In this document: in pieces, positions 12,121 through 50,695 of the stretch
How the letters are laid out: the number at the start of each line of letters is the position of its first letter
Numbering within the stretch: position 1 is the stretch's first letter
Source: a virus
Lineage: Duplodnaviria > Heunggongvirae > Uroviricota > Caudoviricetes
Length of the DNA: 64,000 nt
Virus record (IMG/VR): IMGVR_UViG_2675903433_000022
Strand: one strand, 5' to 3'
Notes under the pieces: model-generated
What the model saw: only the letters and a program-made list of their open reading frames with translations
Database searches by the model: none
Told to the model about the DNA's origin: nothing
Program-made: the position numbers and the translations under genes

Positions 12121-12268
12121 CAGGGAAAAGGTTGCATCCCGCTACAGAAACGGCTGGATTGCCTTCGGGGAACGGCTGGAGGTTTTCAGGGAAACGGTCG
12201 AGCTGCCTTTGTGGATTTCGGGAAAAGGCTCGATGCCGGTTCAGGAACGGTGGCGTACCGGTATAGCG
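12121..12268. repeat. Six tandem ~22-25-bp direct repeats with core GGGAAA(C/A)GGCTG (iteron-like), family 2
   Basis: Cores at 12123, 12147, 12168, 12190, 12221, 12245; related set at 15304-15385. Confidence 0.5.
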
Positions 12269-34003: not shown

Positions 34004-34353
34004 TTTCCCGCGATGAATCCGGGACAAGGACCGTCTCAATAGATCTCGGATTCTATTTCAGTCGTGTAGTTGCTCACTACGCCGTGTCGCCATTAGAGCT
34101 ACTGAACGTTCCTCTCACGATGTTCTGGATGCTCAGTCGCAATATAGACCGTCTGCGTGCGGAAGAGGATGTCCGCAACTTACAAGTCGCTCGTGCGTCC
34201 CAGGCGGATGGCGAGGCTGTGAAGGCGTTCATGGAGGGTTTGCAACTCAGGATTGGAAGACCAGTCGTAACAGATAAAGTCTACGATCCAAGCCAGGATA
34301 AGGCAGACCCTGACGCCAAAGAGCAACTGATGCAAATATTTGGCAGAGGATGA
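33686..34353 (+). CDS. Tail assembly chaperone frameshift product (G-T-like), -1 slip near 33974-33980
   Basis: The -1 frame is open from 33967 to 34353 and overlaps the G frame only at 33967-34003, which contains the A-run GAAAAAG. Confidence 0.45.
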
Positions 34354-34360
34354 CAAGGGA

Positions 34361-37300
34361 ATGTCACAAAACGTAGAGTTTATCCTGTCGCTGGAAGACA
34401 AACAGTTTACAGCGTCAATCGATCGTGCGGGGAAACTGCTTACTCGATTTGGTGAGCAGGTAACAAAGCCTGCTCAAAAAATCCAAACCTTTGAACGCTC
34501 TTTGGGTTCGGTCGCCCGTATCACTGGCGTTCTGGAAAGCAAGCTCGATTCTACGGCAGATAAACTACAGGATGTAGCTGCCGGTTTTGAGCTTGCTTCA
34601 GATGCTACGCGTAAAATGCGTGGCAACATCACCAGCCTCAATTCTGGTCTTAAAGCCCTGATTGAGCGCGTCGATACGACAACTTCTTCAGTAGATAAAC
34701 TCACCGCGTCATTACGTAAAGTGCAATCAGAGCTAAATGATTTCTCTGATTGGGCGACCTATGCAAGCAAAAGCGCAAGCCGCTTTGGTACGGAGGTCAA
34801 AGAAGCCTCTGCGTCCGTGAGTGGCATGAATACGCGCCTTAATACCACGACGAAGCGACTCAGTAATTGGGGTGTCACAACGAGTCAGGCTGCCGAGGGA
34901 CTGAAAAAGGTTCGTGAGCAGATGGACGAAGTTATCGGACGTCAGCAACTGATTAGCAAGCCGGTACGCGTTCGTACATCTGGAAGTGGCGATGGTGGTA
35001 GCGGGCGGCGTAGCGGCGCTTCTGGCCATAGCGGTAAAAGTAACGAAGGAGGTATGTTCTCTGGCCTTCGTGGCAACATTTTCCTGCTTGGCGAGATCGG
35101 AGATGCAGCCAGAACGGTTACTGACATCATGTTTGGGTGGCAGAAGCCTATTGTTGAAGCTGCGGCCGAAATGGAACGTATGCGGGTGATGCTTCGAGGG
35201 TTGAATAAGGAGAAGTCCAACCCGGGCCAGGCTGCCGCTGATGATATGAAGTACATCGTAGACATGGCTCAAAATGCGCCGTTCGCGATGCAGGCGTTAA
35301 CAGACTCCTTCGTGAAGTTTCGTTCTGCTGGCTTAGATCCAACCGATGGTTCTCTGAAGGCGCTGGTGGACTCCGTTGCTCGTTTTGGTGGTGATAGTGA
35401 GCTGTTGAAACGTGCGGCTGTGGCCGTTCAGCAGATGTCCGGTAAGGGCGTTGTGTCAATGGAAGAGCTACGTCAGCAATTAGGTGAAGCCGTTCCTAAC
35501 GCGATGCAGGCAATGGCAGACGCCGCAGGCATCACTATGGGGGAACTGACTAAAGCCGTTGCCAGCGGTACGGTTGAGGCAAAACAGGCGTTGTCTCTGA
35601 TGTTTGTTGGTCTGCGTGCGGAGAATGAGAACGCAGCGAAAGACATGATGCAAACCTACACAGGTGCGCTGGCGCAACTTCAGACGTCATTCACGTTATT
35701 TGCTGATCGGGTTGGTCAGGCCGGATATCTGGATTCTCTATCGAAGGGGATGAAAGAACTGGCTTCAATCATGAATAGCGCCGAAGGGATTTCGTTTGCC
35801 AATTCTTTAGGCTCGGGGTTAACGACGGCAATTGATGGGTTGCGTCAGCTTGCTCAATGGTTAGCAAAGAACCAAGAGCTGGTAATTAATCTCGGTAAGG
35901 TCGTGGCCGCGATGGTTGCGTTCAAACTGATGCGAGCAGGGATCATGGGGGTAGTTGGCGCAGGCAGCCAGATGGTTAGCACCTTTGCCACGATGGCGAC
36001 CGCCATACAGACTCCATTTAACCTCGGCGCTACAGCAGTAACCCGATTCAATCGTGCGGCACGTATGGGGCTGGCTCCGATCCCCTCTCTTATTTTCGCC
36101 ATCCGTGGGGCGATTACTGGGCTTAAAGGCGCTTTTGCTGGATTAACGGCGTTCATTGCAGCAAACCCTATAGGGGCAGCATTTACAGTTGCCACTGTAG
36201 CTGTTGCTGGCCTAATCACGTACATGACCATGCTCCGCAGCGAAACTTCAAAGGTCGTTGACGAGATTAGGAAAATACCAGAGGCGATGACGGCGGCCAA
36301 ACGTGCACAAATGGCCGACCGCGCAGAAAAGCTCGAAAAGCAGATTCTTGCTGATCAACGAGCATTAAAAACTGGTGAGGGTGTTAATTACGTATCTAAC
36401 TCTGCCGGTGTTATTACTCACAAAGAGTCGAAGGCTGACATCGAAGCACGCCTGAAAAAAAATCAGGAAGAGTATCAAAAGATAACCGGCACGATAGCTC
36501 TTGGTGACGGCGCTGTAGCAAAGCGTTTGGCTAAAGAGGCTGCCGAATCTCAGATTGAGAAAATTCGAGCGGAAAACCAGATTTTCGCGGCAACATTCGT
36601 GAAAGCCCGGCAGGAGGCTCTGGAGAAGATCCAGAAAATCAATGATGACGGTTCACTTTCAGATGACGAAAAGAACAAGCTATTGGCACCGTTACGTGAA
36701 ACGGTAAACAAAAGCTATCTGGAGCCTGCGCAAAAACTGGTTGATTCACTTTCTTCTCGTAAGAATGCGACCGAGAAGCAAATCGCGACTCTTAATGATC
36801 AGCTTGAAAAAGCCAAAAAGGATGGAAATACCGAGCAGATCCAGAAACTGCAAGGCAGTATTCGTGGTTATCAGGAGCATTTGGAAGCCGTTGCTCAGGA
36901 GCTGACTCAGGCAGAGTTCGAGAGAGATAACGCGGCCAAAACTGGTAAGGGCGTAATGTCAAACCAGGGGACTGTTCTTGGGTTAGGTACAACTGATAAA
37001 GCTGCTCAGAAGGCGCTGGCGCAATATATGCGAAACCAGATGGATTCTGCGACTTATCAGCGTACTTTGCCTGACGGCACTCCGATGATGGACTTCGAAG
37101 GTAAGCCGATTATTGGGCCTAAACAACTCAAGACGCAGCTTAATTTGCAGAAAGCATCCAGTGCCAGCTCTCTGGAGAAAATGAGCGATGAAGAGCGTGC
37201 CGCAGCCATTGCTGCACTGACTAAAGCTCGTGAACAGGATGCAGCAGCTGCCGAGAAAGCAGCCCAACGATCAGCTAACGCCTCGCAGCGTGCGGCCAAG

Positions 37301-38914
37301 AAGGAACAGGCAGCGCAACAGAAACTGGCAGCCGGATACCAGAAGGCTCTGGACAAAGCCGATCAGCTTATGGGGCAAATGGGTGAAAGCTCTAAGGCTA
37401 CGGTATCGTTTGATCAGTCTCTTCGCGATACAACGAAATCGCTGACAGATTTGGCTAATGCGGTTCCTAACGAGTTCATCACTCAAGAGATGATCGACAA
37501 GGCGAAAAAACGTCTTGAGGACCTCAAAAATGCGACACCTGAATATCGCGAGATGTTTAATCGCCGCAATGTTGAGCAGATGATCTCCACTTGGGCACCG
37601 GAGGCGGATTCCATTATTAGTGCTGGCTATACGCCGTCTCGTGAAGAGAAAGTTGCTGATTTCGAAGACACCTACAACCGCAATCTTAAAGCGTTGATAG
37701 AACTTCGTGATAAGGCGTCTGATCCTAAAGTCGTGGCGCTTTATACAAAGAAAATCAATCAACTTATTGCTGCTGGCAATACCGCGCTTATTAAAGAGAC
37801 GGGGACTGCGACGCAGAAGTTGGCACTGGAATACGAAAACCTGGCAGAGCAGATCGAAAGCACCTGGACTGATTTGTTTAGTGGCTTAACTGATGTCCTG
37901 ACTGATTTCGTTATTAACGGGAAGATGAGCTTCTCCAGCCTATCTCAGTCCATTTTGAAAGATATCACCAATATGGTCGTGAAGTCGCAGATCACGCTGC
38001 CTCTAATGAACATGTTGGGGATGGGAACCACCGCAGCTGGTAGTTCACAGAGTGATAATTTGCTGACCGGGGTTGCTTCCGCCGTTGCCAATCAAGGTGT
38101 ACGAATGGGTAACACTGTTAACGGCGACAAATCAGTAGGAGAAGCAACGAAGGAGACGTCCAGTTCGGTAACTGGATTGGGGCAAACAACACAGCAGACC
38201 ACCAGCGCAATTGGCACAGCAACAAATGCGATTGGTAGCTGGGTATCAGGGCTATTTGATAGCACTGAAGCCAAAGATGCTGAGACAAAAGCAGTGAAGG
38301 ATTCCATCTTCTCGATGCAGAACCTCAGCTCTGTTACCGGCGCGCTGTCTGCCGCGTTTGCAATGCTTGGAGCTAATGCTTCCGGCTCTGGTAATAAGTG
38401 GTTGAGTTTTGGAGCAACGGTTGCATCTGGTCTTGTTTCAGCTTGGGCTGGCGGTGGTTTCGACAGCGTGACATCAAGCTCTGCTAAAACCGCAACCAGC
38501 AGTGTGGCTGACGGAACTAAAGGTATTCCTGCAATCCCGAAGTTTGCAAATGGAGGAATATTCGGAAAAGACGGCGTGATCCCGCTCCGGGCATACCAGA
38601 AAGGCGGTATTGCTAACTCACCTCAATTGGCGTTGTTTGGGGAAGGTTCTATGAATGAGGCGTATGTTCCATTGCCTGATGGTCGAACAATCCCTGTAAC
38701 GCTCAGTACCGATGGTATGAGTGGAGGAGGAAATGTTCTTTCTCCGGTATCAATTGAGATCAACGTCCATAGTGACGGTAGCACAACTGAATCCGGCGAT
38801 ACAGAAAGCATATGGAACAATGCCGCTCAACGGATGAAAGCAATCGCGCTTGAGACTATCGCTCAAGAGAAACGCCCTGGCGGATCACTCAACCCAAACA
38901 CTCAACGTAACTAA
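34361..38914 (+). CDS. Tail tape-measure protein
   Basis: About 1520 aa, helical N-terminal half, Gly/Ala-rich hydrophobic middle; alternative TTG start at 34340. Confidence 0.85.
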   Translation: MSQNVEFILSLEDKQFTASIDRAGKLLTRFGEQVTKPAQKIQTFERSLGSVARITGVLESKLDSTADKLQDVAAGFELASDATRKMRGNITSLNSGLKALIERVDTTTSSVDKLTASLRKVQSELNDFSDWATYASKSASRFGTEVKEASASVSGMNTRLNTTTKRLSNWGVTTSQAAEGLKKVREQMDEVIGRQQLISKPVRVRTSGSGDGGSGRRSGASGHSGKSNEGGMFSGLRGNIFLLGEIGDAARTVTDIMFGWQKPIVEAAAEMERMRVMLRGLNKEKSNPGQAAADDMKYIVDMAQNAPFAMQALTDSFVKFRSAGLDPTDGSLKALVDSVARFGGDSELLKRAAVAVQQMSGKGVVSMEELRQQLGEAVPNAMQAMADAAGITMGELTKAVASGTVEAKQALSLMFVGLRAENENAAKDMMQTYTGALAQLQTSFTLFADRVGQAGYLDSLSKGMKELASIMNSAEGISFANSLGSGLTTAIDGLRQLAQWLAKNQELVINLGKVVAAMVAFKLMRAGIMGVVGAGSQMVSTFATMATAIQTPFNLGATAVTRFNRAARMGLAPIPSLIFAIRGAITGLKGAFAGLTAFIAANPIGAAFTVATVAVAGLITYMTMLRSETSKVVDEIRKIPEAMTAAKRAQMADRAEKLEKQILADQRALKTGEGVNYVSNSAGVITHKESKADIEARLKKNQEEYQKITGTIALGDGAVAKRLAKEAAESQIEKIRAENQIFAATFVKARQEALEKIQKINDDGSLSDDEKNKLLAPLRETVNKSYLEPAQKLVDSLSSRKNATEKQIATLNDQLEKAKKDGNTEQIQKLQGSIRGYQEHLEAVAQELTQAEFERDNAAKTGKGVMSNQGTVLGLGTTDKAAQKALAQYMRNQMDSATYQRTLPDGTPMMDFEGKPIIGPKQLKTQLNLQKASSASSLEKMSDEERAAAIAALTKAREQDAAAAEKAAQRSANASQRAAKKEQAAQQKLAAGYQKALDKADQLMGQMGESSKATVSFDQSLRDTTKSLTDLANAVPNEFITQEMIDKAKKRLEDLKNATPEYREMFNRRNVEQMISTWAPEADSIISAGYTPSREEKVADFEDTYNRNLKALIELRDKASDPKVVALYTKKINQLIAAGNTALIKETGTATQKLALEYENLAEQIESTWTDLFSGLTDVLTDFVINGKMSFSSLSQSILKDITNMVVKSQITLPLMNMLGMGTTAAGSSQSDNLLTGVASAVANQGVRMGNTVNGDKSVGEATKETSSSVTGLGQTTQQTTSAIGTATNAIGSWVSGLFDSTEAKDAETKAVKDSIFSMQNLSSVTGALSAAFAMLGANASGSGNKWLSFGATVASGLVSAWAGGGFDSVTSSSAKTATSSVADGTKGIPAIPKFANGGIFGKDGVIPLRAYQKGGIANSPQLALFGEGSMNEAYVPLPDGRTIPVTLSTDGMSGGGNVLSPVSIEINVHSDGSTTESGDTESIWNNAAQRMKAIALETIAQEKRPGGSLNPNTQRN

Positions 38915-39324: not shown

Positions 39325-39374
39325 ATTGTGGCGCTGACAGGATGTTAGCGCCTACTTATTTCAAGGATGAAACA

Positions 39375-40073
39375 ATGGGAATTAAAGCTGATATTCAGAG
39401 CTTATCTCCCTCTGCACTCATTGAGTTGTTCGTACTGGATATGTCGAACACAACTTCAGGGGGGAAGCTATTCTTCCACGCCGGAACAAACGAACTGATG
39501 CAACCGGTCGTCTGGCAAGGGGTGACATACGAGCCGTGGCCAATCAAAGCATCAGGCTTTGACAAAACGGGCCAGGGAACGTTGCCACGTCCAAAAATTC
39601 AGGTATCGAACTTTGCCGGAACCGTCTCTGCGGAAGTTCAGGCGAACGACGATCTTGTTGGCTGCCGCATTATTCGCAAGATGACGCTGGCTCGCTTCCT
39701 CGATGCCGTTAATTTTAAAGACGGCAACCCAACAGCAGATCCAAACCAACATTTCCCGGATGAAATGTGGTTTATCGAACAGAAAACTCTCGAAACTCAT
39801 CAGGTTGTCGAGTTTGAATTGTCCAGTGTGTTCGATTTGATGGGGGTGCAACTGCCGTATCGTCAGATCATTAAAAACACCTGCCCGTGGAAATACCGAG
39901 GGCCAGAATGCGGCTATACCGGTCCATATTTCGACAAAAATAACCAGCAGACGTCTATGTCTGGTGCTGATTACTGCACAAAACGTTATGACGCCTGTAA
40001 TGCGCGTCGGAATTATTTTGCCAACGGAGTGATCCATTTTGGCGGGTTTATTGGAGCTACGCGATATGGGTAA
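39375..40073 (+). CDS. Minor tail protein (lambda L-like)
   Basis: 232 aa from MGIKADIQ; AAGGA RBS; Cys-rich C-terminus. Confidence 0.65.
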   Translation: MGIKADIQSLSPSALIELFVLDMSNTTSGGKLFFHAGTNELMQPVVWQGVTYEPWPIKASGFDKTGQGTLPRPKIQVSNFAGTVSAEVQANDDLVGCRIIRKMTLARFLDAVNFKDGNPTADPNQHFPDEMWFIEQKTLETHQVVEFELSSVFDLMGVQLPYRQIIKNTCPWKYRGPECGYTGPYFDKNNQQTSMSGADYCTKRYDACNARRNYFANGVIHFGGFIGATRYG

Positions 40074-41441: not shown

Positions 41442-41458
41442 TCAAGGATTTTTTGGAC

Positions 41459-44400
41459 ATGGAACAGTTCAAGAAGAAAAAATTACCGCTTTTTATTGCC
41501 GGTGCTGGTGGCAAGAAAAGTAAAAGCTCCAGCCGTACCCCGGTTGAAGCTGATGATACTGTCAATTCTCGTGCTATGGCAGCCATCCTCGACCTTCTTG
41601 GCGAGGGGGTTATCGGTGGCCTGGTAAATGGCGCAAAGTCGATCTTCATCGACGATTTACCGATCTTGAATGAAGATGGCTCTTCCAACTTCAGCGGTAT
41701 TACATGGGATTTTCGTGACGGCTCACAAGACCAGACGCCAATGGCTGGTTTTGATTTTGTCGAAACGCCTAAGTCCGTAAATATTCAGCTTAAAAAAACA
41801 CACGACGTTACGGTTTCAATCGATAACGATGAAGCTGATCGCGTTCGTGTCATCATGAAATTCCCCTCTTTACGTAGCGTTGATAAAAGCTCTGGCGATA
41901 CAAATGGCACTACGGTGAAGTACAAATTCCAGATCGCCAACGGAGACGCAACATTTTCTGATGTAGTGGCAGAAGGTGAGAAAAGCGTTGATATCACGCT
42001 AACGGCAAAGAAAACCGGCGTGTATTACCGTAGCTATGAGCTGAAACTACCTAAGCCTGGTCGTGCATACAAGGTTAGGGTGATTCGTCTTACAGATGAT
42101 AACAGTAGCCAGTACCTCTACAACGACACATGGGTTGATTCCATAGGTGAGATTGTCGACACGCCAATGAACTACCCTAACTCTGCTCTTGTTGGCTTGA
42201 AGGTCAATTCAGAGCAGTTTGGTAGCACAATGCCTTCCCGTTCGTATTTGGTGCGCGGTATCAAAATCCGAGTACCGTCAAACTACAACGAATACACCAA
42301 TACTTATGTCGGCGTATGGGACGGTACTTTTAAGCTGTTGTCTTCTTCAAACCCTGCGTGGATTCTCTACGATTTGCTTACCAATACTCGGTATGGTCTT
42401 GGGCAATTTGTGTCGGAATCCATGATTGACCTCGGCCAGCTCTACCAGATTGGTCGATATTGTGACGAAGAGGTCGATGATGGCTTTGGGGGTAAAGAGA
42501 AACGCTTTGCAATCAATACGCAGATCACCAGTCGACAAGACGCATACCGATTAATTCAGGATATTGCCGGTGCATTCCGCGGCATGGTGTTTTGGGCTGG
42601 TGGCATGGTTAACATCATGCAGGATAGCCCATCAGATCCAGTAATGATGTTTACCAACTCCAACGTCAAAGATGGACTGTTTACCTATAAAGGTTCTGCG
42701 CGTAAAGATCGCCCATCCGTTGCGCTCGTAACCTACAACAACAAGGAGGACGGTTATAAGCAAAACATCGAGTACGTTGAAGATCAGGACGCAATGCGCC
42801 GTTATGGTGAGCGTAAAACAGAAGTCGTAGCATTTGGATGTACAAGCCGAGGCCAGGCTCACCGAGTTGGTTTGTGGCTTTTGTATACCGCCAGAATGGA
42901 GTCGGATGTAATTACATTTACTGCCGGCTTAGACGCCTCATTTCTGATGCCCGGTGAAACCGTTCTGATTCAGAACAAATATCGTGCAGGTAAACGTAAC
43001 TCCGGTCGAATTGTGGAGTTTACCAAAAACAGCATCACTCTCGATGCGCCTGTGTCGTTAGCTAAAAGCGGCAGCTTTATTCGGATATTGAATCAGGAAG
43101 GCAAAATCGTTGAGCGCGATGTTCTTGAAACTGGCGAAAACATAACAAAGGTTACGTTTTCAAAAGCTCTGTCGTCAGCGGAAACGCCTGTTTTGAACGG
43201 TGTCTGGACAATTACAGAACCAGATCTCGAACCTATGCGCGTTCGCATCGTTAACATCGCTCAGGGGGAAACGTCGGGTAGCTTTGACATCACCGCTGTT
43301 GAGAACAATCCGTCTAAATATGAGGCAATCGACAATGGTGCAACGCTTATCCCGCAGAATACGACGGTATTGGACCCGACTTACTCTAAGCCATCTAATT
43401 TGCAAATCACTGAAGGGACTTATCTCTCAAGCCCGGGCAACCTGTCAGTAAAACTGACTGCAACATGGGAAGGAAAATCTCCAGAGTATTGGATTAGTTG
43501 GCGACGTTCTGATGAAAACAATGTATCGAACTGGCAATCGGCGCGTGTAACCGAAGAGCAATACGAAATCGTTAATGTCGCGGAGAATGGACGCTACGAC
43601 TTCCAACTGTATGCGGTTTCATTCAACGGTAAAAAAACAGAGATTATCAGTACCGTTTATCAGGTGTTGGGCACAATGACACCGCCGGATGCCCCAACGT
43701 CATTAACGGCCGTTGGAGACTATCGTAATGTGATACTGAATTGGGTTAATCCAGATTCGGTAGACCTTGATCACATTAATGTTTACGCATCCCAGACCAA
43801 CAATCTGGATACAGCGAAACTGATCGCAGAGTCTGCAAGCACCACCTTTACACATGCTGGTCTTGGGGATAGCGAAACGTGGTATTACTGGGTTCGAGCA
43901 TCGAACAAGCGAGGTATGTTAAGCCCTCCGAACTCAAACTTGGGTACAGAGGCGACAACTCGCGATGTACTGTCGTTCCTGGCTGGCAAAATTACATCTT
44001 CCGAGCTTGGTCAGGCTCTGCTTGAGGACATCAACAGCAAAGCCTCTCAAGAAGCAGTTGACGAGTTAAATGAGCATATCAACCAGAGCGTCGAATCTTT
44101 GGAGGGGTCGGTAAACGACGTTAAGGAAGATATAGCTGAATTAGATAAGCAGTTCAGCGATAACCTCGCGGGTTTTGAAATAAAATTCAACGAGCGTAGC
44201 GATGCTTTGGAGAACGCACAAACCGAGCTTAAAGGTGAGGTTTCGGCAACGATCGACAAGGTCAATGAAGCGTTTGAAAAAATTGATGCTGCTGATGCTG
44301 CAATTGTTGAAATCGAAAACACCGTATCTGAACACGATAAAGCTCTCGCTAATACAGTCGAGGCAATAAAGGCTGCAAGAGACGAAGCGGCGGCTCTTAT

Positions 44401-46183
44401 TGCTAAGGAAAGCGAGGCTCGTGTAGAAGGTGATGCCGCAAACGCTAAACAACTGGAAGTGTTGCAGTCGACGGTAGAGGAAAGTTCCGCAGCCGTTGAA
44501 GAAATGAAAAAGACGGTTGCAGAGGTCGATCGTGCCAGTGCAGAACTGACTACGAACATTGAGGCGTTAGCCAAAACAAATATTGACCTGGCTCTTCGTC
44601 AAGATGAAGACCAGCACAAGCAGATGGTCAATAACGCGAAGATCGCAACAACACAGAAAACCTTTGCTGATGATATGTCTGCAATGGCCACGAAGGTTGA
44701 GGAAATTCGCGTAGAAATTGGCGAAGACATTAAGGCCAGTATTCTGGAAGAGTCCACCGCTCGTGCCGATGGCGATGAAGCGTTGGCAAAGCGTGTCACT
44801 CAGCTGCAATCTAAGTTTGAAGGAGATATCAGCGCGGCGATTAGTACAGAACAGGAGGCTCGTACATCTGCCGATGAAGCTTTGACGAAACAAATAACTC
44901 AGCTTGAGTCGAAAGTAAGCAACGATATTGTCGCAGCCATTAAGGAAGAGCAAGAAGCCCGAGCAACGGAAGATTCGGCTCTGGCAAGCCAGATCACCCA
45001 ACTTCAGGCAAAAGTTGATGATGATATTTCTGCTGCAATACGCAGTGAGCAGGAGGCGCGTGCGAGCGGAGACTCTGCGTTAGCTAAACAAATAAACCAG
45101 CTTCAAGCAAAGGTTGACGGTGATATATCCGCCGCCATCACTCAGGAGCAGGAGGCCAGAGCAAGTGCTGACGAGGCGCTCTCACGAGAAATTAACAGCC
45201 TGCGGGCGCAGACCGGAACTGACATTGCCGCAGCCGTTGCTGTAGAGACAAAGGCAAGGACTGACGCCGATAGTGCATTGTCCAGCCAGATTACATCTCT
45301 TACAGCAAAAGCTAATGATCTCGAGGCGTCTCTTGCCAAAGAAACAACGGCTCGTGCAGATGGCGATACCGCTTTAACAAAAGAGGTTTCAAGTTTAAAA
45401 GCACAGACAGCGAAAGATATTAGTGCGGCCGTTGCAGTGGAAACGCAGGCTCGAACTGATGCTGACTCGGCGCTATCGTCTCAGATCACCAAGCTGACCT
45501 CTCAATACAAAGAGGATATTAAAGCGGCTGTAGCAACCGAAACGAAAACGCGTACAGAGCAAGATGCGGCACTGGCGACTCAAATCACAAACTTAGAGTC
45601 TCAAACAGCAGCCAACATTTCTGCGGCGGTCACAACTGAAACGACAGCGAGAACGCAGGCAGATAATGCACTAAGTGGGCGAATCGATACTCTGAAAGCA
45701 GAGGTGGATGGAAATACCGCGACAATTCAACAGCAGGCAACAGCCATTGCTGATACCAACAAAAAAGTCTCAACCGCGTGGACGTTGAAAATGGAGACTT
45801 CAACGAGCGGAGGGCAGAAGTATGTTGCCGGTATTGCGCTTGGTATCGACACCACCGGTCTTTCTCAGTTTTTGGTGCAGGCGGACAGATTTGGTTTGGT
45901 CAACTCTGTTAACGGGAAGATCACCACGCCATTTGTTATCGAAAACAGTATCGCCTATATGAATGGTGCGTATATCAAGGATGGCACAATCACCAATGCA
46001 AAAGTAGGCGATCTGCAATCTACCAATTTTGTTAGCGGTAGATCTGGATGGCGGTTCGGCAAAAATGGAACGCTTGAGATCAACGGTAATAGCGGCGGCA
46101 ATGGGCGATTGGTTATAAATGGTCAGCGGATTGACGTTTATGACGATAACAACGTCCTACGAGTAAGAATTGGCCTTCTGTGA
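41459..46183 (+). CDS. Tail tip / host-specificity protein (lambda J-like) with internal coiled-coil repeat array
   Basis: About 1570 aa following M-L-K-I-like genes; fibronectin-type region; ten or so 33-aa repeats. Confidence 0.8.
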   Translation: MEQFKKKKLPLFIAGAGGKKSKSSSRTPVEADDTVNSRAMAAILDLLGEGVIGGLVNGAKSIFIDDLPILNEDGSSNFSGITWDFRDGSQDQTPMAGFDFVETPKSVNIQLKKTHDVTVSIDNDEADRVRVIMKFPSLRSVDKSSGDTNGTTVKYKFQIANGDATFSDVVAEGEKSVDITLTAKKTGVYYRSYELKLPKPGRAYKVRVIRLTDDNSSQYLYNDTWVDSIGEIVDTPMNYPNSALVGLKVNSEQFGSTMPSRSYLVRGIKIRVPSNYNEYTNTYVGVWDGTFKLLSSSNPAWILYDLLTNTRYGLGQFVSESMIDLGQLYQIGRYCDEEVDDGFGGKEKRFAINTQITSRQDAYRLIQDIAGAFRGMVFWAGGMVNIMQDSPSDPVMMFTNSNVKDGLFTYKGSARKDRPSVALVTYNNKEDGYKQNIEYVEDQDAMRRYGERKTEVVAFGCTSRGQAHRVGLWLLYTARMESDVITFTAGLDASFLMPGETVLIQNKYRAGKRNSGRIVEFTKNSITLDAPVSLAKSGSFIRILNQEGKIVERDVLETGENITKVTFSKALSSAETPVLNGVWTITEPDLEPMRVRIVNIAQGETSGSFDITAVENNPSKYEAIDNGATLIPQNTTVLDPTYSKPSNLQITEGTYLSSPGNLSVKLTATWEGKSPEYWISWRRSDENNVSNWQSARVTEEQYEIVNVAENGRYDFQLYAVSFNGKKTEIISTVYQVLGTMTPPDAPTSLTAVGDYRNVILNWVNPDSVDLDHINVYASQTNNLDTAKLIAESASTTFTHAGLGDSETWYYWVRASNKRGMLSPPNSNLGTEATTRDVLSFLAGKITSSELGQALLEDINSKASQEAVDELNEHINQSVESLEGSVNDVKEDIAELDKQFSDNLAGFEIKFNERSDALENAQTELKGEVSATIDKVNEAFEKIDAADAAIVEIENTVSEHDKALANTVEAIKAARDEAAALIAKESEARVEGDAANAKQLEVLQSTVEESSAAVEEMKKTVAEVDRASAELTTNIEALAKTNIDLALRQDEDQHKQMVNNAKIATTQKTFADDMSAMATKVEEIRVEIGEDIKASILEESTARADGDEALAKRVTQLQSKFEGDISAAISTEQEARTSADEALTKQITQLESKVSNDIVAAIKEEQEARATEDSALASQITQLQAKVDDDISAAIRSEQEARASGDSALAKQINQLQAKVDGDISAAITQEQEARASADEALSREINSLRAQTGTDIAAAVAVETKARTDADSALSSQITSLTAKANDLEASLAKETTARADGDTALTKEVSSLKAQTAKDISAAVAVETQARTDADSALSSQITKLTSQYKEDIKAAVATETKTRTEQDAALATQITNLESQTAANISAAVTTETTARTQADNALSGRIDTLKAEVDGNTATIQQQATAIADTNKKVSTAWTLKMETSTSGGQKYVAGIALGIDTTGLSQFLVQADRFGLVNSVNGKITTPFVIENSIAYMNGAYIKDGTITNAKVGDLQSTNFVSGRSGWRFGKNGTLEINGNSGGNGRLVINGQRIDVYDDNNVLRVRIGLL
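44750..45700 (+). repeat. About ten tandem ~99-bp (33-aa) repeats inside the J-like gene
   Basis: Periodic units ALxxQIxQLQAKVxxDISAAIxxEQEARASxD read in the translation. Confidence 0.5.
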
Positions 46184-46211
46184 TGGTAGAAAAAAATATT
46201 TATATCGGTAA

Positions 46212-46236
46212 AAATAAGTAGGTAATTACTTAATGG
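46212..46236. promoter_or_regulatory. AAATAAGTAGGTAATTACTTAATGG, late-region motif copy
   Basis: Intergenic before the tail-fibre gene. Confidence 0.4.
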
Positions 46237-46276
46237 TGGGCAAGAATAGCCCACCAAATCAAGGAGCATATTCAAC

Positions 46277-49200
46277 ATGTGGTACAGGGAAGGTACTATC
46301 ACATTTACACAGGGCAGCAATACTCTGGTTGGGGCAGGGACAGCCTGGAACGTAACAGCTAATGGTGTGTTGCCGGGGATGATCGTCATTGGCCCCGACA
46401 ACAAGCTGTATGAGATCAAGCGCGTAACCAGTGATACGAACATTGTTCTCTCAGAACCTTATACCGGCGAAACTCAGTCTGAAGTTCCGTGCCGAATCAT
46501 TACGACCTATGAAGGCGACTTAACACAGTTTAGCGCGCGCTTTACTGCACTAATGTCGCGTATGTCGGCTGATTCCAAGTCCATGCGCAGTTGGTTGACT
46601 GCTCTGGATGAGGTGACAATCGAGCGTGAAGACGGTACAGAAGTGACCGTTAAGCCGCTAATGCAGATCGTCAACGAGCACAACGAAAACGTTGAGTGGT
46701 ATAAAAATAACACTGACGCGATTAATGCTGCTGGCGACAAAGCTAGTGAGGCGGCGGCCAGTGCTGCCGCAGCAGCAGAAAGCGCCAATACCGCTGGAGA
46801 AAAAGCCTCTCAAGCGTCTCAAAGTGCATCCGCTGCGGCATCTTCACAAAGTGCTGCAAGTGCGAGCGCAACTGCTGCGAAAAAATCTGAAACGAACGCA
46901 CAAGCTGCAAAAGAAGCGGCAGCAGAATCAGCATCTGTAGCGTCGGCCAAAGCATCGGAGGCAGCAACATCTGCGTCCAGTGCCTCTGCGTCTAAGGATG
47001 CAGCCAAAGCATCAGAGACTAACGCTTCATCGAGTGCAAACGCGGCGGCATCATCGGCAACAGAAGCTGCAAATTCGTCTAAGGCAGCAAAAACGTCAGA
47101 GACAAACGCAAAAGCATCTGAAACGGCAGCCGAACAAAGTGCATCGTCTGCAAACAGTTCGAAATCTGCGGCAGAAGCATCAGCGAGCGCAGCCTCAGCA
47201 AGTGCGGTTAGTGCTTCATCAAGTGCAACAGCGGCAGGAAAATCTGCGGATAGTGCATCGTCATCAGCGACAATAGCTACCACAAAAGCGACAGAGGCGA
47301 CAAGTCAGGCTACAGCTGCTAAAAATTCAGCATCGGCAGCAAAAACCTCTGAAACAAATGCAAAGGTCTCAGAAGACAATGCGGCTTCCTCTAAGGCGGC
47401 AGCTGCTGAATCTGCAAGTTCTGCGTCTGCATCAGCCACCTCAGCATCCGCTTCAAAAGATGAGGCGACCAAGCAGGCATCAGCAGCGAAGGGTAGTGCT
47501 TCAACGGCATCCACGAAAGCAACAGAGGCGGCAGGCAGTGCGACGGCTGCATCTCAGAGCAAAGCTGCTGCTGAATCCGCTGCGACCCGTGCAGAAGCTG
47601 CCGCTGATCGTGCTGAAGAGATTGCCGGTGCAGTTGCGATGGAAGATGCAAGCCTTACCACCAAAGGTGTTGTGAAACTTAGCAGTGCTGTCGACAGCAC
47701 CAGTGAATCTTTAGCCGCGACACCAAAAGCAGTTAAGACCGCATATGATAATGCTGAAAAACGACTACAGAAGGATCAGAATGGTGCTGATATCCCCGAC
47801 AAGGGCCGCTTCCTGAATAACATTAATGTTTACAGCAAAGGTGAAGTGGATAAGAAAAAGGGGATGCGATACGTTGTGGTAAATGCCCCGGCGGGTGTCC
47901 AGGAAGGTAAATATTATCCGTTAGTGATAAAAAGGAATGACAGCCATCGGGCATCCCGCGTTGTCATTTCAACGCCAAGTCGCACAGCTAATCACAGAAT
48001 GAATAACTGTGAGTTTAATGGTTTTGTTTGCGCAGGCGGCTGGACGGACCGGGGTAGCTATGCCTGTGGTATGTTCTGGGCTTATTCATCATCGGAACGC
48101 GCTATTCATTCCATTCTGATGAGTAATAAAGGCGATACCGTAGACAGCGTATTCTATATAGAAGGTGGGGCATTTCCCGTAGAGGTCTTTTTAGAAGAAG
48201 GACTCTCCGTTACTGCACCTGCTTCTGATTATGTTGTTGCTGAAACGACTTATAAATTTGGCGCAACTGATCCTTATTCTGAATCAGTTGCGGTAAATTT
48301 AATTTTAGATTTTAAACAAGGCAATGGATTTTATAGTTCGTATCCTGTTTTGAGTAAGTCAGACATTAGCGGTAATAAGGTTTACGCTAATGATGAAGTT
48401 ATTGTCCGTAGTCAGAATGCGTTAAGGATGATTGCTGGCGATTACGGTGTCATATGGCGAAATGATGGAGCAAATACTTACTTGCTGATGACTGATAAAG
48501 GCGACCAGTACGGTGGCTGGAACGGTCTTCGACCATTTGCTGTAGATAACGCAACAGGTGAAGTTACGATCAATACACCACTTAATTCTCCAAAAGGGGT
48601 TAAGGGGAATTCTGATACAGCTACGAAACTTCAGACTGCAAGAAAAATATCCGGTGTTCCATTTGATGGCTCTACTGATATCACTTTAACCGCCGCGCAT
48701 GTTGCCGCTTTCGCAAGAAGAGCAACAGGGTCATATGCGGATGCTGATGGTGGCGTGCCGTGGAATGCTGAATCTGGTGCTTACAATGTAACTAGAACAG
48801 GCGACAGTTATATTCTTGCCAACTTTTATACCGGTGTAGGTAGTTGCCGTACGCTTCAAATTAAAGCTCACTATAAAAATGGTGGTCTGTTCTACCGTTC
48901 CTCAAGAGATGGCTATGGTTTTGAAAGTGGTTGGGAGCAGGTTTACACGACTGGATTTATGCCTCAGCCGGCTGATATAAACGCACCAACCGCTGCCGCT
49001 GGATGGTTAAATAGTGGTAACGGAACGGCATTTACGACTGCTCAATTTATAACTTGGCTAAATAATCAGGGGGCATTTACAAACAAACATTGGATCGCAC
49101 GGTGCTCATGGACTTACGCCAACAATAATTATATAGACGACACTGGTTGCGGTAGGATCGATCTATCTGGTTCCGTGATTGAGGTGTTTAGTAATAAGGC

Positions 49201-50695
49201 AACAAGCCACTACACTATTCGTGTTACAACGACAACAACATCAGGTCATGGTGGTGTTAATAATGCGGAATTTATTTATGTGTACAATGGGAGTGATTAT
49301 GCGCCAGGCTGGCGTCGTTCTTATAACACCAGAAACAAACCAACAGCTTCTGATGTAGGAGCATTACCGCTTTCAGGTGGCACATTATCTGGGGGGTTAA
49401 CGTCTTCTGGTGAGATCGTTTCAAAATATGCAAATGGTTTCCGCATTGCTTACGGTAACTATGGGTTCTTTATCCGTAATGACGGCGGCAGCACATATTT
49501 CATGCTAACAGCATCAGGAGATACGTTAGGTTCATGGAACAGTTTGCGACCGATTACAATTAATAATACCAGCGGTGTTGTGTCTATTGGTAATGGACTA
49601 AATGTTACTGGTGGCGTAAATGGTAGCTTGAATGGCAATGCTTCAACAGCTACGAAGTTACAAACAGCGAGAAACATCAATGGTGTTAAGTTTGATGGTT
49701 CAGGCGATATCAATATTAATACATTGGTTTCTCGTGGCCGAGTTACGGCTTTAAGCGGTTCTACTCAAGGTACTGCTGGCATTCAAATGTACGAGGCGTA
49801 CAACAATAGCTACCCGACCACGTATGGCAACGTATTGCACATGAAAGGGGCGAGTGCTGCTGGTGAGGGCGAGTTGCTTATTGGCTGGAGTGGTACGAGC
49901 GGTGCACATGCGCCGGTTTTCATTCGCTCCCGAAGAGATACCACTGATGCGGCATGGTCAGCGTGGGCGCAGGTATATACTGCTAAGGATTCAATTCCTG
50001 GTGTGAATACAACCGGTAATCAGAACACTACTGGTAATGCCGCAACCGCCACAAAATTGCAGACAGCAAGGAAAATTGCTGGTGTGGCGTTTGATGGCTC
50101 TGCCGATATTACTTTGACTGCGGCTAACCTTAATGCCTATACGAAAACAGAGGTAACAAACCTTCTAAGTTCCTATGCAACCAGATCATCACTGACAGGC
50201 TATAGTGGCAACCTGGATATTATTGCTGAAACACTGGTTGTCAAATCAGGCGGTAGTGGAGGGTTTGCTATATGGGATATTGGCACAACTACTAGCGGTG
50301 CCAATATGTACATTGATCCAAACCCAGGTATCAATACAGTTTGGCGTTCAACATCTTCAAGGCGCTATAAAAAGGATATTGAAACATTACAAGATCGATA
50401 TGCTGATGAACTTTTGTCATTAAGACCTGTTTGGTATCGTTCAATTTGTCGAGGTGACCGAAAGGATTGGGGGTATTACGGCCTTATTGCTGAAGAGGTT
50501 GGTGAGATTGCCCCGCAATATGTCCATTGGCGTGAACCAACAAATAATGATTCTCCAGAAGATATTTCCTCAAATGGTATGGTCGCTGAAGGGGTGATGT
50601 ATGAGCGTTTGGTTGTACCACTCATTCATCATATTCAGCAATTGACCAAAAGGGTTGAGGAGCTTGAAACGAAGTTAAATTCACCTAAAGAATAA
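46277..50695 (+). CDS. Long tail fibre with C-terminal intramolecular chaperone (S74-type)
   Basis: 1472 aa; Ala/Ser-rich low-complexity region; three ATKLQTARKIxGVxFDGSxDI repeats; C-terminal YKKDIETLQDRYADELLSLRPVWYR resembles self-cleaving chaperone domains. Confidence 0.8.
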   Translation: MWYREGTITFTQGSNTLVGAGTAWNVTANGVLPGMIVIGPDNKLYEIKRVTSDTNIVLSEPYTGETQSEVPCRIITTYEGDLTQFSARFTALMSRMSADSKSMRSWLTALDEVTIEREDGTEVTVKPLMQIVNEHNENVEWYKNNTDAINAAGDKASEAAASAAAAAESANTAGEKASQASQSASAAASSQSAASASATAAKKSETNAQAAKEAAAESASVASAKASEAATSASSASASKDAAKASETNASSSANAAASSATEAANSSKAAKTSETNAKASETAAEQSASSANSSKSAAEASASAASASAVSASSSATAAGKSADSASSSATIATTKATEATSQATAAKNSASAAKTSETNAKVSEDNAASSKAAAAESASSASASATSASASKDEATKQASAAKGSASTASTKATEAAGSATAASQSKAAAESAATRAEAAADRAEEIAGAVAMEDASLTTKGVVKLSSAVDSTSESLAATPKAVKTAYDNAEKRLQKDQNGADIPDKGRFLNNINVYSKGEVDKKKGMRYVVVNAPAGVQEGKYYPLVIKRNDSHRASRVVISTPSRTANHRMNNCEFNGFVCAGGWTDRGSYACGMFWAYSSSERAIHSILMSNKGDTVDSVFYIEGGAFPVEVFLEEGLSVTAPASDYVVAETTYKFGATDPYSESVAVNLILDFKQGNGFYSSYPVLSKSDISGNKVYANDEVIVRSQNALRMIAGDYGVIWRNDGANTYLLMTDKGDQYGGWNGLRPFAVDNATGEVTINTPLNSPKGVKGNSDTATKLQTARKISGVPFDGSTDITLTAAHVAAFARRATGSYADADGGVPWNAESGAYNVTRTGDSYILANFYTGVGSCRTLQIKAHYKNGGLFYRSSRDGYGFESGWEQVYTTGFMPQPADINAPTAAAGWLNSGNGTAFTTAQFITWLNNQGAFTNKHWIARCSWTYANNNYIDDTGCGRIDLSGSVIEVFSNKATSHYTIRVTTTTTSGHGGVNNAEFIYVYNGSDYAPGWRRSYNTRNKPTASDVGALPLSGGTLSGGLTSSGEIVSKYANGFRIAYGNYGFFIRNDGGSTYFMLTASGDTLGSWNSLRPITINNTSGVVSIGNGLNVTGGVNGSLNGNASTATKLQTARNINGVKFDGSGDININTLVSRGRVTALSGSTQGTAGIQMYEAYNNSYPTTYGNVLHMKGASAAGEGELLIGWSGTSGAHAPVFIRSRRDTTDAAWSAWAQVYTAKDSIPGVNTTGNQNTTGNAATATKLQTARKIAGVAFDGSADITLTAANLNAYTKTEVTNLLSSYATRSSLTGYSGNLDIIAETLVVKSGGSGGFAIWDIGTTTSGANMYIDPNPGINTVWRSTSSRRYKKDIETLQDRYADELLSLRPVWYRSICRGDRKDWGYYGLIAEEVGEIAPQYVHWREPTNNDSPEDISSNGMVAEGVMYERLVVPLIHHIQQLTKRVEELETKLNSPKE
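46720..47650 (+). repeat. Low-complexity Ala/Ser/Lys-rich repeat region within the tail-fibre gene
   Basis: Repetitive ASxAAxSA units; generates spurious ORFs on both strands. Confidence 0.4.

Follow-up and report, generated by a model that had tools for sequence, protein, structure and literature searches.

The central tail fibre gene of a siphovirus phage-plasmid, carried on a 64,000-nucleotide (nt) stretch of Caudoviricetes DNA (IMG/VR record IMGVR_UViG_2675903433_000022; the window, below, is this whole stretch), was found to encode a regular array of ten 33-residue units in its predicted helical shaft. The element is an SSU5-group (SSU5-like) siphovirus phage-plasmid, and the gene is J-like (41459..46183, + strand), as indicated by Pfam, PHROG, PDB and synteny. 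The array is a repeat at the protein level and not a DNA tandem repeat of the usual kind. The number of its units changes rarely, at microhomologies of at most 11 nt, and was seen to change only by loss. Our best reading, held at roughly even confidence, is that the units build a coiled-coil shaft which sets fibre length and doubles as a fold-switch spring. We rank this spring shaft first and a passive spacer second, take docking of the side fibres to be a compatible extra role, and consider a contingency locus effectively excluded.

The open reading frame 41453..46183 (+) is real and, counted from the ATG at 41459, encodes a protein of 1574 amino acids (aa); domain positions given here follow the numbering of the translation from 41453. 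Ten in-register units stand head to tail over aa 1088-1416, or 44720-45706 of the window, nine of them 33 aa long and one 32 aa. A preliminary description, made from the letters of the sequence, had placed about ten 33-aa units of a 1574-aa J-like protein at 44750-45700, and both the gene and the array were recovered in our analysis. Units 0-4 (type A, 44720..45214, +, starting at 44720, 44819, 44918, 45017 and 45116) share the consensus xxDISAAIxxEQEARxSxDxALxxQItQLQAKV. Units 5-9 (type B, 45215..45706, +) share xxDIxAAVAxETxARTDADxALxxQITxLxxQT and occupy 45215-45310 (unit 5, the one of 32 aa), 45311-45409, 45410-45508, 45509-45607 and 45608-45706. The amino-acid identity at a lag of 33 is 0.49, compared with 0.10 ± 0.017 in 2000 shuffles (maximum 0.165), and the nucleotide identity at a lag of 99 is 0.52, compared with 0.29 ± 0.015 in codon shuffles. 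With both identities far above the shuffles, chance periodicity was rejected. Columns A6, E11, R15, D19, A21, L22 and L29 do not vary among the ten units, and D3, I4 and A14 hardly do. The most divergent unit is unit 6, directly after the 32-aa unit 5. It was also observed that each third unit (0, 3 and 6) has 'GD' for 'AD' at positions 18-19 (aa 1105, 1204 and 1302); the Gly codons at position 18 lie at 44771-44773, 45068-45070 and 45362-45364.

The preliminary description had presented the array as tandem repeats of ~99 bp in the DNA, and at that level it did not hold. Tandem Repeats Finder reported no ~99-bp array in 42000-48000 (minimum score 30) or in the whole window, and an exact-seed repeat finder returned only 60-80% identical fragments at multiples of 99 nt. 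Pairwise identity of the unit DNA ranges from 0.42 to 0.61, with a mean of 0.52. In register, exact repeats reach 11 nt at most, in GAGCAGGAGGC, which has its left copy at 45047..45057 and its right copy at 45146..45156 (both +). Identical residues share their codon between units in 32.9% of cases, compared with 34.0% expected from random synonymous choice, which is saturation; the duplications are therefore old, and the protein alone has been conserved. In the mechanism that we propose, the units would stem from ancient duplications, and their likeness would be kept solely by selection on the protein.

Whole units are still lost from this array. We found four independent deletions of exactly one unit (99 nt, 33 aa), all in frame and in register, between diverged neighbouring units. 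The genes of PhiR41_1 and CMS-2020a SCU-175 are 99.65% identical with a single 99-nt gap, and the PhiR41_1 junction lies at an 11-nt microhomology, GCTGCTATTAA. The E. coli AH04 plasmid NZ_CP081707.1 is without window positions 45075-45173, leaving a chimeric unit 3/4, and this deletion immediately adjoins the 11-nt repeat GAGCAGGAGGC; AH02, a sibling of AH04, has the same 99-nt shorter span. Strain 2013C-4991 is without 45008-45106, with unit 3 cleanly removed. A list of protein homologues, consisting of partial proteins (none above ~1000 aa), was used for junction types only. In it, proteins P0001-P0005 and P0007 have the unit spacing of 2013C-4991, with unit sequences compared for P0001, and protein P0006 has units 1/2 fused. 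All observed deletions fall within units 1-4, the block of most similar units, and no copy-number variants were seen in units 5-8 among the sampled E. coli plasmids.

Of 5426 complete E. coli genomes, 165-168 carry the array region at 95-99% identity, in each case on a plasmid and never on a chromosome. The top 60 of these matches are ungapped (1401/1401 nt), and in samples spread over the ranks the last ranks alone were 99 nt shorter. The frequency of deletions was bounded from record spans in the sampled rows, as overlapping megablast pieces keep the coverage at 90-94%. By this measure, at least 2 and, given the sampling, at most ~7 of 167 complete E. coli genomes carry a deletion, and the shorter arrays seen in the sampled rows were those of AH02/AH04 and 2013C-4991 only. 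Although their sequences diverge by 1-6%, more than 95% of the 167 plasmids have exactly ten units. A second, diverged E. coli allele has ten units that map one-to-one and in order to those of the window, so the ten-unit array predates both alleles. Recent duplications were not found, including in the metagenomic relative P0010 (locus L014), in which neighbouring units are 85-88% identical in protein; their DNA is just 66-73% identical, which argues against a recent expansion there as well.

These observations bear on whether the array could be a contingency locus, namely a hypermutable DNA tandem repeat that switches length frequently by slipped-strand mispairing or homologous recombination. 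One-unit indels between near-identical genes are what such a locus would produce. The blank Tandem Repeats Finder result speaks against it, as do the low DNA identity of the units (61% at most), the saturation of their synonymous sites, the shortness of their exact matches (at most 11 nt), the ten units held by nearly all E. coli plasmids with the allele, the ordered mapping between the two diverged alleles, and the lack of recent duplications even in a relative whose neighbouring units are 85-88% identical in protein. Given the diverged DNA of the units and the rarity of copy-number polymorphism, we regard a contingency locus as very improbable and effectively excluded. The preliminary description had suggested that recombination can change the copy number. 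Whole-unit differences are indeed real, but those seen are rare, are deletions only, and lie at microhomologies of at most 11 nt between diverged repeats. It had held that diverged unit DNA together with an invariant copy number would speak against the idea; the DNA was found to be diverged and the copy number to vary among relatives (5, 6, 9 and 10 units), so copy-number change survives in this limited form. For genome scanning, the lesson is that strong protein periodicity can escape every DNA tandem-repeat finder, and that arrays invisible to such finders still lose whole units at 11-nt microhomologies.

Separately, three E. coli plasmids (NZ_CP024271.1, NZ_CP029421.1 and NZ_CP124394.1) may hold damaged J genes. 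Among them, one match is 1-2 nt above the query length, possibly from a frameshift or a sequencing error, and two records have the array region split in two places or truncated.

Units in related elements were counted with a hidden Markov model of the 33-aa unit. Ten units were counted in the window, in Cyrano and in two CMS-2020a records, nine in PhiR41_1, six in Y. pestis pMT1, and five in SSU5 and an Enterobacter plasmid; E. coli elements have nine or ten. The pMT1 copy (NC_005815.1; L012:2014-6645) is an intact J-like open reading frame of 1543 aa. Its C-terminal remainder after the last unit is 276 aa long, compared with 158 aa in the others, and a DUF4376 gene sits between J and the fibre gene. 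The Klebsiella relatives have a J protein of 4044 aa and no regular 33-aa array. In phages vB_KpnS_p4727 (L009:321-12455) and vB_Kpn_1825-KPC53 (L010:413-12547) this J is a single open reading frame whose two ends correspond to those of the window protein, a hub at the N-terminus and Phage_Tail_Tip (aa 3776-3906) at the C-terminus, and ~2900 aa, including an ILEI-like domain, lie between these end domains.

Beyond this group, the unit profile matches 1927 protein clusters (50% identity) among 1.84 billion representatives, 873 of them with E<=1e-10, and as many as 31 copies of the unit occur in one protein. The same tail-tip domain was found in four of the six top profile matches that were scanned. 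The 33-aa unit is thus a common, widespread building block, and the array belongs to a known kind of fibre module, of which the window holds a particularly regular, long and naturally length-variable case. Distant homologues have the same ExxxRxxxDxxL-type unit with periods of 32, 33 or 36 residues, and some mix periods with inserts of 46 or 80 residues. Matches of relatives to Apolipoprotein, SlyX, DUF1664 and SF-assemblin were below the cut-off and were set aside as generic coiled-coil noise.

The periodicity of the units was then compared with that of a heptad coiled coil, the pattern named in the preliminary description. The hydrophobicity power is 110.9 at 3.65 residues (33/9 = 3.67) and 2.1, essentially nothing, at 3.5, which contradicts that assignment. 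Power at 33/8 and 33/13 is nearly equal to that at 33/9, as expected of any strictly 33-periodic sequence, so the safe claim is that a heptad register is excluded, and no more. A unit of 33 residues also has no room for whole heptads, and the canonical heptad register is therefore not kept. The unit is probably of hendecad type, namely three hendecad-like stretches with nine core positions in a 4,3,4 / 4,3,4 / 3,4,4-like spacing.

Structure was predicted with AlphaFold2 (AF2) for single chains, with an alignment of 40 sequences and, for the distal part, a deeper alignment of 77. The monomer model places an alpha-helical shaft at aa ~863-1405 (44045..45673, +), and aa 841-1416 contain no proline. 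With 40 sequences the helices cover aa 863-1053, 1063-1292 and 1303-1406 at a predicted local distance difference test score (pLDDT) of 50-85, with short breaks at aa 1054-1062 and 1293-1302. With the deeper alignment, units 5-9 form one unbroken helix of 152 residues at pLDDT 90-95, which ends at aa 1405, and beta strands begin at aa 1408, right after the helix of the last unit. Foldseek of the model against PDB was informative for the tip domain only, as long single helices gave no useful matches. The array is the distal ~60% (~330 residues) of an enlarged helical shaft of ~540 aa between the fibronectin type III (FNIII) domains and the C-terminal beta-prism. By analogy with homologous solved shafts, it would pack as a trimer, and we consider the shaft to be the likely counterpart, unusually long, of the lambda gpJ 'AHS' and the F-pyocin shaft. 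At ~0.148 nm per residue, a coiled-coil unit would add ~4.9 nm and ten units ~49 nm, so that the unit number would set the distance of the tip domain from the tail. The presumed Cyrano virion has a tail of 259 ± 12 nm, ~30 nm above the 230 nm expected from its tape measure (PMC9928086). Published accounts of the Sf11 tail and of Cyrano contain nothing on the central fibre shaft.

Length could be all that the units provide. In that case the shaft would be a stable trimeric coiled-coil rod that does not refold, with the sole role of setting how far the central fibre reaches through O-antigen or capsule. The high-confidence unbroken AF2 helix is consistent with such a passive spacer, as are the whole-unit length differences among relatives (5, 6, 9 and 10), and the ~2900 aa that separate the same end domains in Klebsiella suggest that length is the evolving variable. 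The fibres of lambda and T5, in addition, do not switch extensively (PMC12874032). We regard the passive spacer, which is in essence the reading of the preliminary description, as possible but less probable than the spring shaft, and it leaves several features of the units, described next, unexplained.

Work on F7 pyocin offers a second role for such a shaft. There, a coiled coil of 163 residues directly upstream of a similar beta-prism refolds into beta-prism on cell contact (PMC12874032), which opens the tip and ejects the tape measure (He et al., January 2026 preprint, PMC12874032). Placing Gln at the small-residue positions stops killing and leaves assembly intact (PMC12874032). Related phage fibres carry the motif SxSxxMxxLxS in alternating orientation, in which Asp or Glu at the M position is paired with Arg four residues away (PMC12874032). 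In the window, all ten units hold the reversed motif at unit positions 6-16 (A-x-I-x-x-E-x-x-A-x-A/T) and the forward motif at positions 21-31 (A-x-S-x-x-I-x-x-L-x-A). The array contains 25 motif matches, compared with 4.9 ± 2.2 in shuffles of the same residues. The E11-R15-D19 triad, invariant in 10/10 units, is the described salt-bridge arrangement of an acidic residue at M with Arg at ±4. Inspection of the alignment by eye suggests that the two stretches between the motifs (unit positions 17-20 and 32-5) are rich in D, G, N and S, a composition that would suit turns. A layout of this kind fits one beta-hairpin per unit, and at 165 aa the five-unit array of SSU5 is close in size to the segment that switches in the pyocin. 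A passive rod accounts neither for the invariant small residues A6, A14 and A21 nor for D/G/N/S-rich segments at two fixed places per unit, both of which fit the published dual-fold motif, and the homologous pyocin segment does switch, with killing abolished when the switch is blocked (PMC12874032).

By analogy with the pyocin, we therefore propose that the J-like shaft probably undergoes a fold switch. The shaft would be metastable and act as a spring, in the manner of the homologous F7-pyocin coiled coil of 163 residues, and the core of each unit would include a buried, invariant E11-R15-D19 salt-bridge ladder. On receptor engagement the shaft would refold to beta-hairpins, ~one per unit, seeded by the adjoining beta-prism. 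The fibre would become shorter in the process, its FNIII plug would be freed, and the tail tip would open.

Several points weigh against the spring shaft. Both monomer AF2 runs (40 and 77 sequences) gave helix only, in a setting where the beta-prism is a three-chain fold. The motif expression is permissive, and since the ten units are homologous, its ten-fold recurrence does not amount to ten independent observations. The pyocin switch region has ~163 residues, or ~five units, whereas 330 or more residues would be involved here. Lambda and T5 are without such an extensive switch (He et al., PMC12874032), and the F-pyocin shaft has a reported heptad register (10.64898/2026.02.24.707460), which does not match the 33-residue period found here. 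A further extension of the spring reading is speculative: the 5-, 6-, 9- and 10-unit alleles of the SSU5 group, together with arrays of up to ~30 units in other phages, might form an allelic series that tunes stroke length and stored energy. What is tuned could then, equally tentatively, be membrane penetration by a non-contractile tail, beyond reach alone. It is conceivable too, though we think it improbable, that the E11-R15-D19 ladder and the small-residue positions are a dual-fold code, with whole-unit indels keeping the hairpin register.

The gene downstream, at 46277..50695 (+), encodes a side tail fibre of 1472 aa with Pfam Gp34_trimer and a C-terminal Peptidase_S74 chaperone domain. 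A third possible role of the repeats would be to offer, above all, attachment sites for this fibre on the shaft, as happens in F-type pyocins. Over its first ~105 aa (46277-46600) the side fibre gives a weak, co-linear match to the N-terminal part of its F2-pyocin counterpart (25ve_A, E=3.7e-4), and the N-terminus also matches the distal tail protein gp20 (23gd_B, E=0.006). In F-pyocin, the side fibres attach as three trimers at a Gly kink in the central-fibre shaft (G955, within kink residues 953-956; PMC13455828), and bends in predicted shafts may be side-fibre sites (He et al., PMC12874032). Pyocin G955 aligns to G1302 of unit 6, in a weak part of the phmmer alignment, and the AF2 model from 40 sequences breaks the helix at aa 1293-1302. 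However, a single attachment site would not require ten units, the Gly in question is not conserved in the SSU5 or pMT1 units, the deeper AF2 model has no break there, the side-fibre match is weak, and the posterior probability around the G955/G1302 alignment is low. Docking as the main role of the repeats is therefore unlikely in our judgement, and it is compatible with the spring shaft and not an alternative to it. Attachment of the side fibre near G1302 is only a lead.

The remaining domains of the J-like protein place the shaft in a known architecture. Pfam identifies FNIII-A_GpJ at aa 103-237 (E=1.1e-29) and Phage-tail_3 at aa 359-522 (E=7.5e-34). The last FNIII domain (43688..43927, +; Pfam fn3, aa 746-825) is the N-terminal boundary of the helical shaft, and the C-terminal beta-prism, or 'central straight fibre' (Phage_Tail_Tip / DUF1983, PF09327), lies at 45722..46126 (+; aa 1424-1558, E=1.2e-41). 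Between aa 850 and 1420 Pfam finds no domain, and no family covers the 33-aa unit. The protein is assigned to phrog_31, 'central tail fiber J'. In sequence searches of PDB, the hub matches lambda gpJ (8iyk_J, E=1e-127, aa 20-860) and the F2 pyocin fibre (25vf_A, E=7.7e-156), and the repeat and tip region matches the same pyocin fibre (25vf_A, E=1.6e-25, chain 926-1193), as well as 9l9p, which has 33-residue repeats of its own, and 9ze4. Foldseek matches of the strand-rich tip domain are lambda gpJ 8xcj/8xci, at E ~1e-7. After the last unit 158 aa remain, and with the protein ending 16 aa past PF09327, a lambda-type Ig-like receptor-binding domain is absent. In this the protein resembles the F-pyocin fibre more closely than lambda.

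The closest of the known systems is the F-type pyocin central fibre (P. aeruginosa PA0641 / PyoF10; F7, F2; PDB 25vf, 25vj, 26ci), which has the same domain order, namely hub, FNIII, long helical shaft and C-terminal beta-prism without a lambda-type receptor-binding domain. The likeness extends to homologous sequence in the hub and in the shaft end and prism (F2, 25vf_A), to the SxSxxMxxLxS motif with acidic-Arg pairs, and to a side fibre whose N-terminus resembles that of the pyocin. The F-type pyocin shaft is a long trimeric coiled coil that carries side fibres (PMC13455828; 10.64898/2026.02.24.707460). It measures ~170-260 aa, in heptad register with one stutter, whereas the shaft here has ~540 aa, 330 of them in the regular 33-residue array. 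The pyocin is a tailocin, whereas this is a virion protein of a phage-plasmid, and the fold switch is demonstrated for the F7 pyocin only. Lambda gpJ shares the homologous hub, FNIII and beta-prism (8iyk, 8xcj) and has its AHS in the same place, but the AHS (residues ~809-861) is ~55 residues long with no repeat array, and lambda has the C-terminal Ig-like domain that is missing here. The lambda AHS is a three-helix bundle below the FNIII domains that partly turns to beta structure on LamB binding (PMC11101478). The J proteins of the SSU5 group (SSU5, Cyrano/pLF82, CMS-2020a, PhiR41_1 and Y. pestis pMT1) are orthologous to that of the window; those of Cyrano and CMS-2020a have the same ten units, and the others differ from it in unit number. 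Trimeric autotransporter adhesins such as YadA and BadA also have trimeric coiled-coil stalks built from non-heptad (hendecad or pentadecad) repeats, with the repeat number setting the length. They are unrelated to the J-like fibre, to which homology was neither found nor looked for, and have neither a fold switch nor a beta-prism seed.

A metastable coiled coil that turns into beta-prism has been proposed as one source of the energy with which non-contractile tails open their tip and pass the outer membrane, so far on the basis of a single pyocin. The locus described here is a very regular, modular form of a switch-type segment in a culturable phage-plasmid family that is widespread in E. coli and Salmonella and includes Cyrano (strain LF82), SSU5 and a relative on Y. 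pestis pMT1. Its natural one-unit deletion variants and its 5-to-10-unit relatives could be used to test shaft length against adsorption, host range and ejection. Should the fold switch not apply, the array would be an ordinary length-variable fibre rod. We consider the finding real but fairly ordinary.

The J-like gene lies in a siphovirus tail module in the window, in which a tape-measure-sized open reading frame (34340-38914) is followed by M-, L-, K- and I-like genes. The L-like gene is at 39342-40073 (Pfam Phage_tail_L), and K- and I-like open reading frames lie between it and the J-like gene by their order. The J-like gene is syntenic with that of Cyrano, PhiR41_1 and SSU5 in the annotated gene order, and over the whole gene its DNA is 94% identical to that of Escherichia phages CMS-2020a and Cyrano. 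Elsewhere in the 64-kb window, the sole array reported by Tandem Repeats Finder is at 12147-12197, with 2.3 copies of a 22-bp unit, GAAACGGCTGGATGGCCTTCGG. On the opposite strand, open reading frames of 144-175 aa at 44047-44574 (-) and 44567-45001 (-) overlap the shaft and the array, and they are presumably by-products of an Ala/Glu-rich coding strand.

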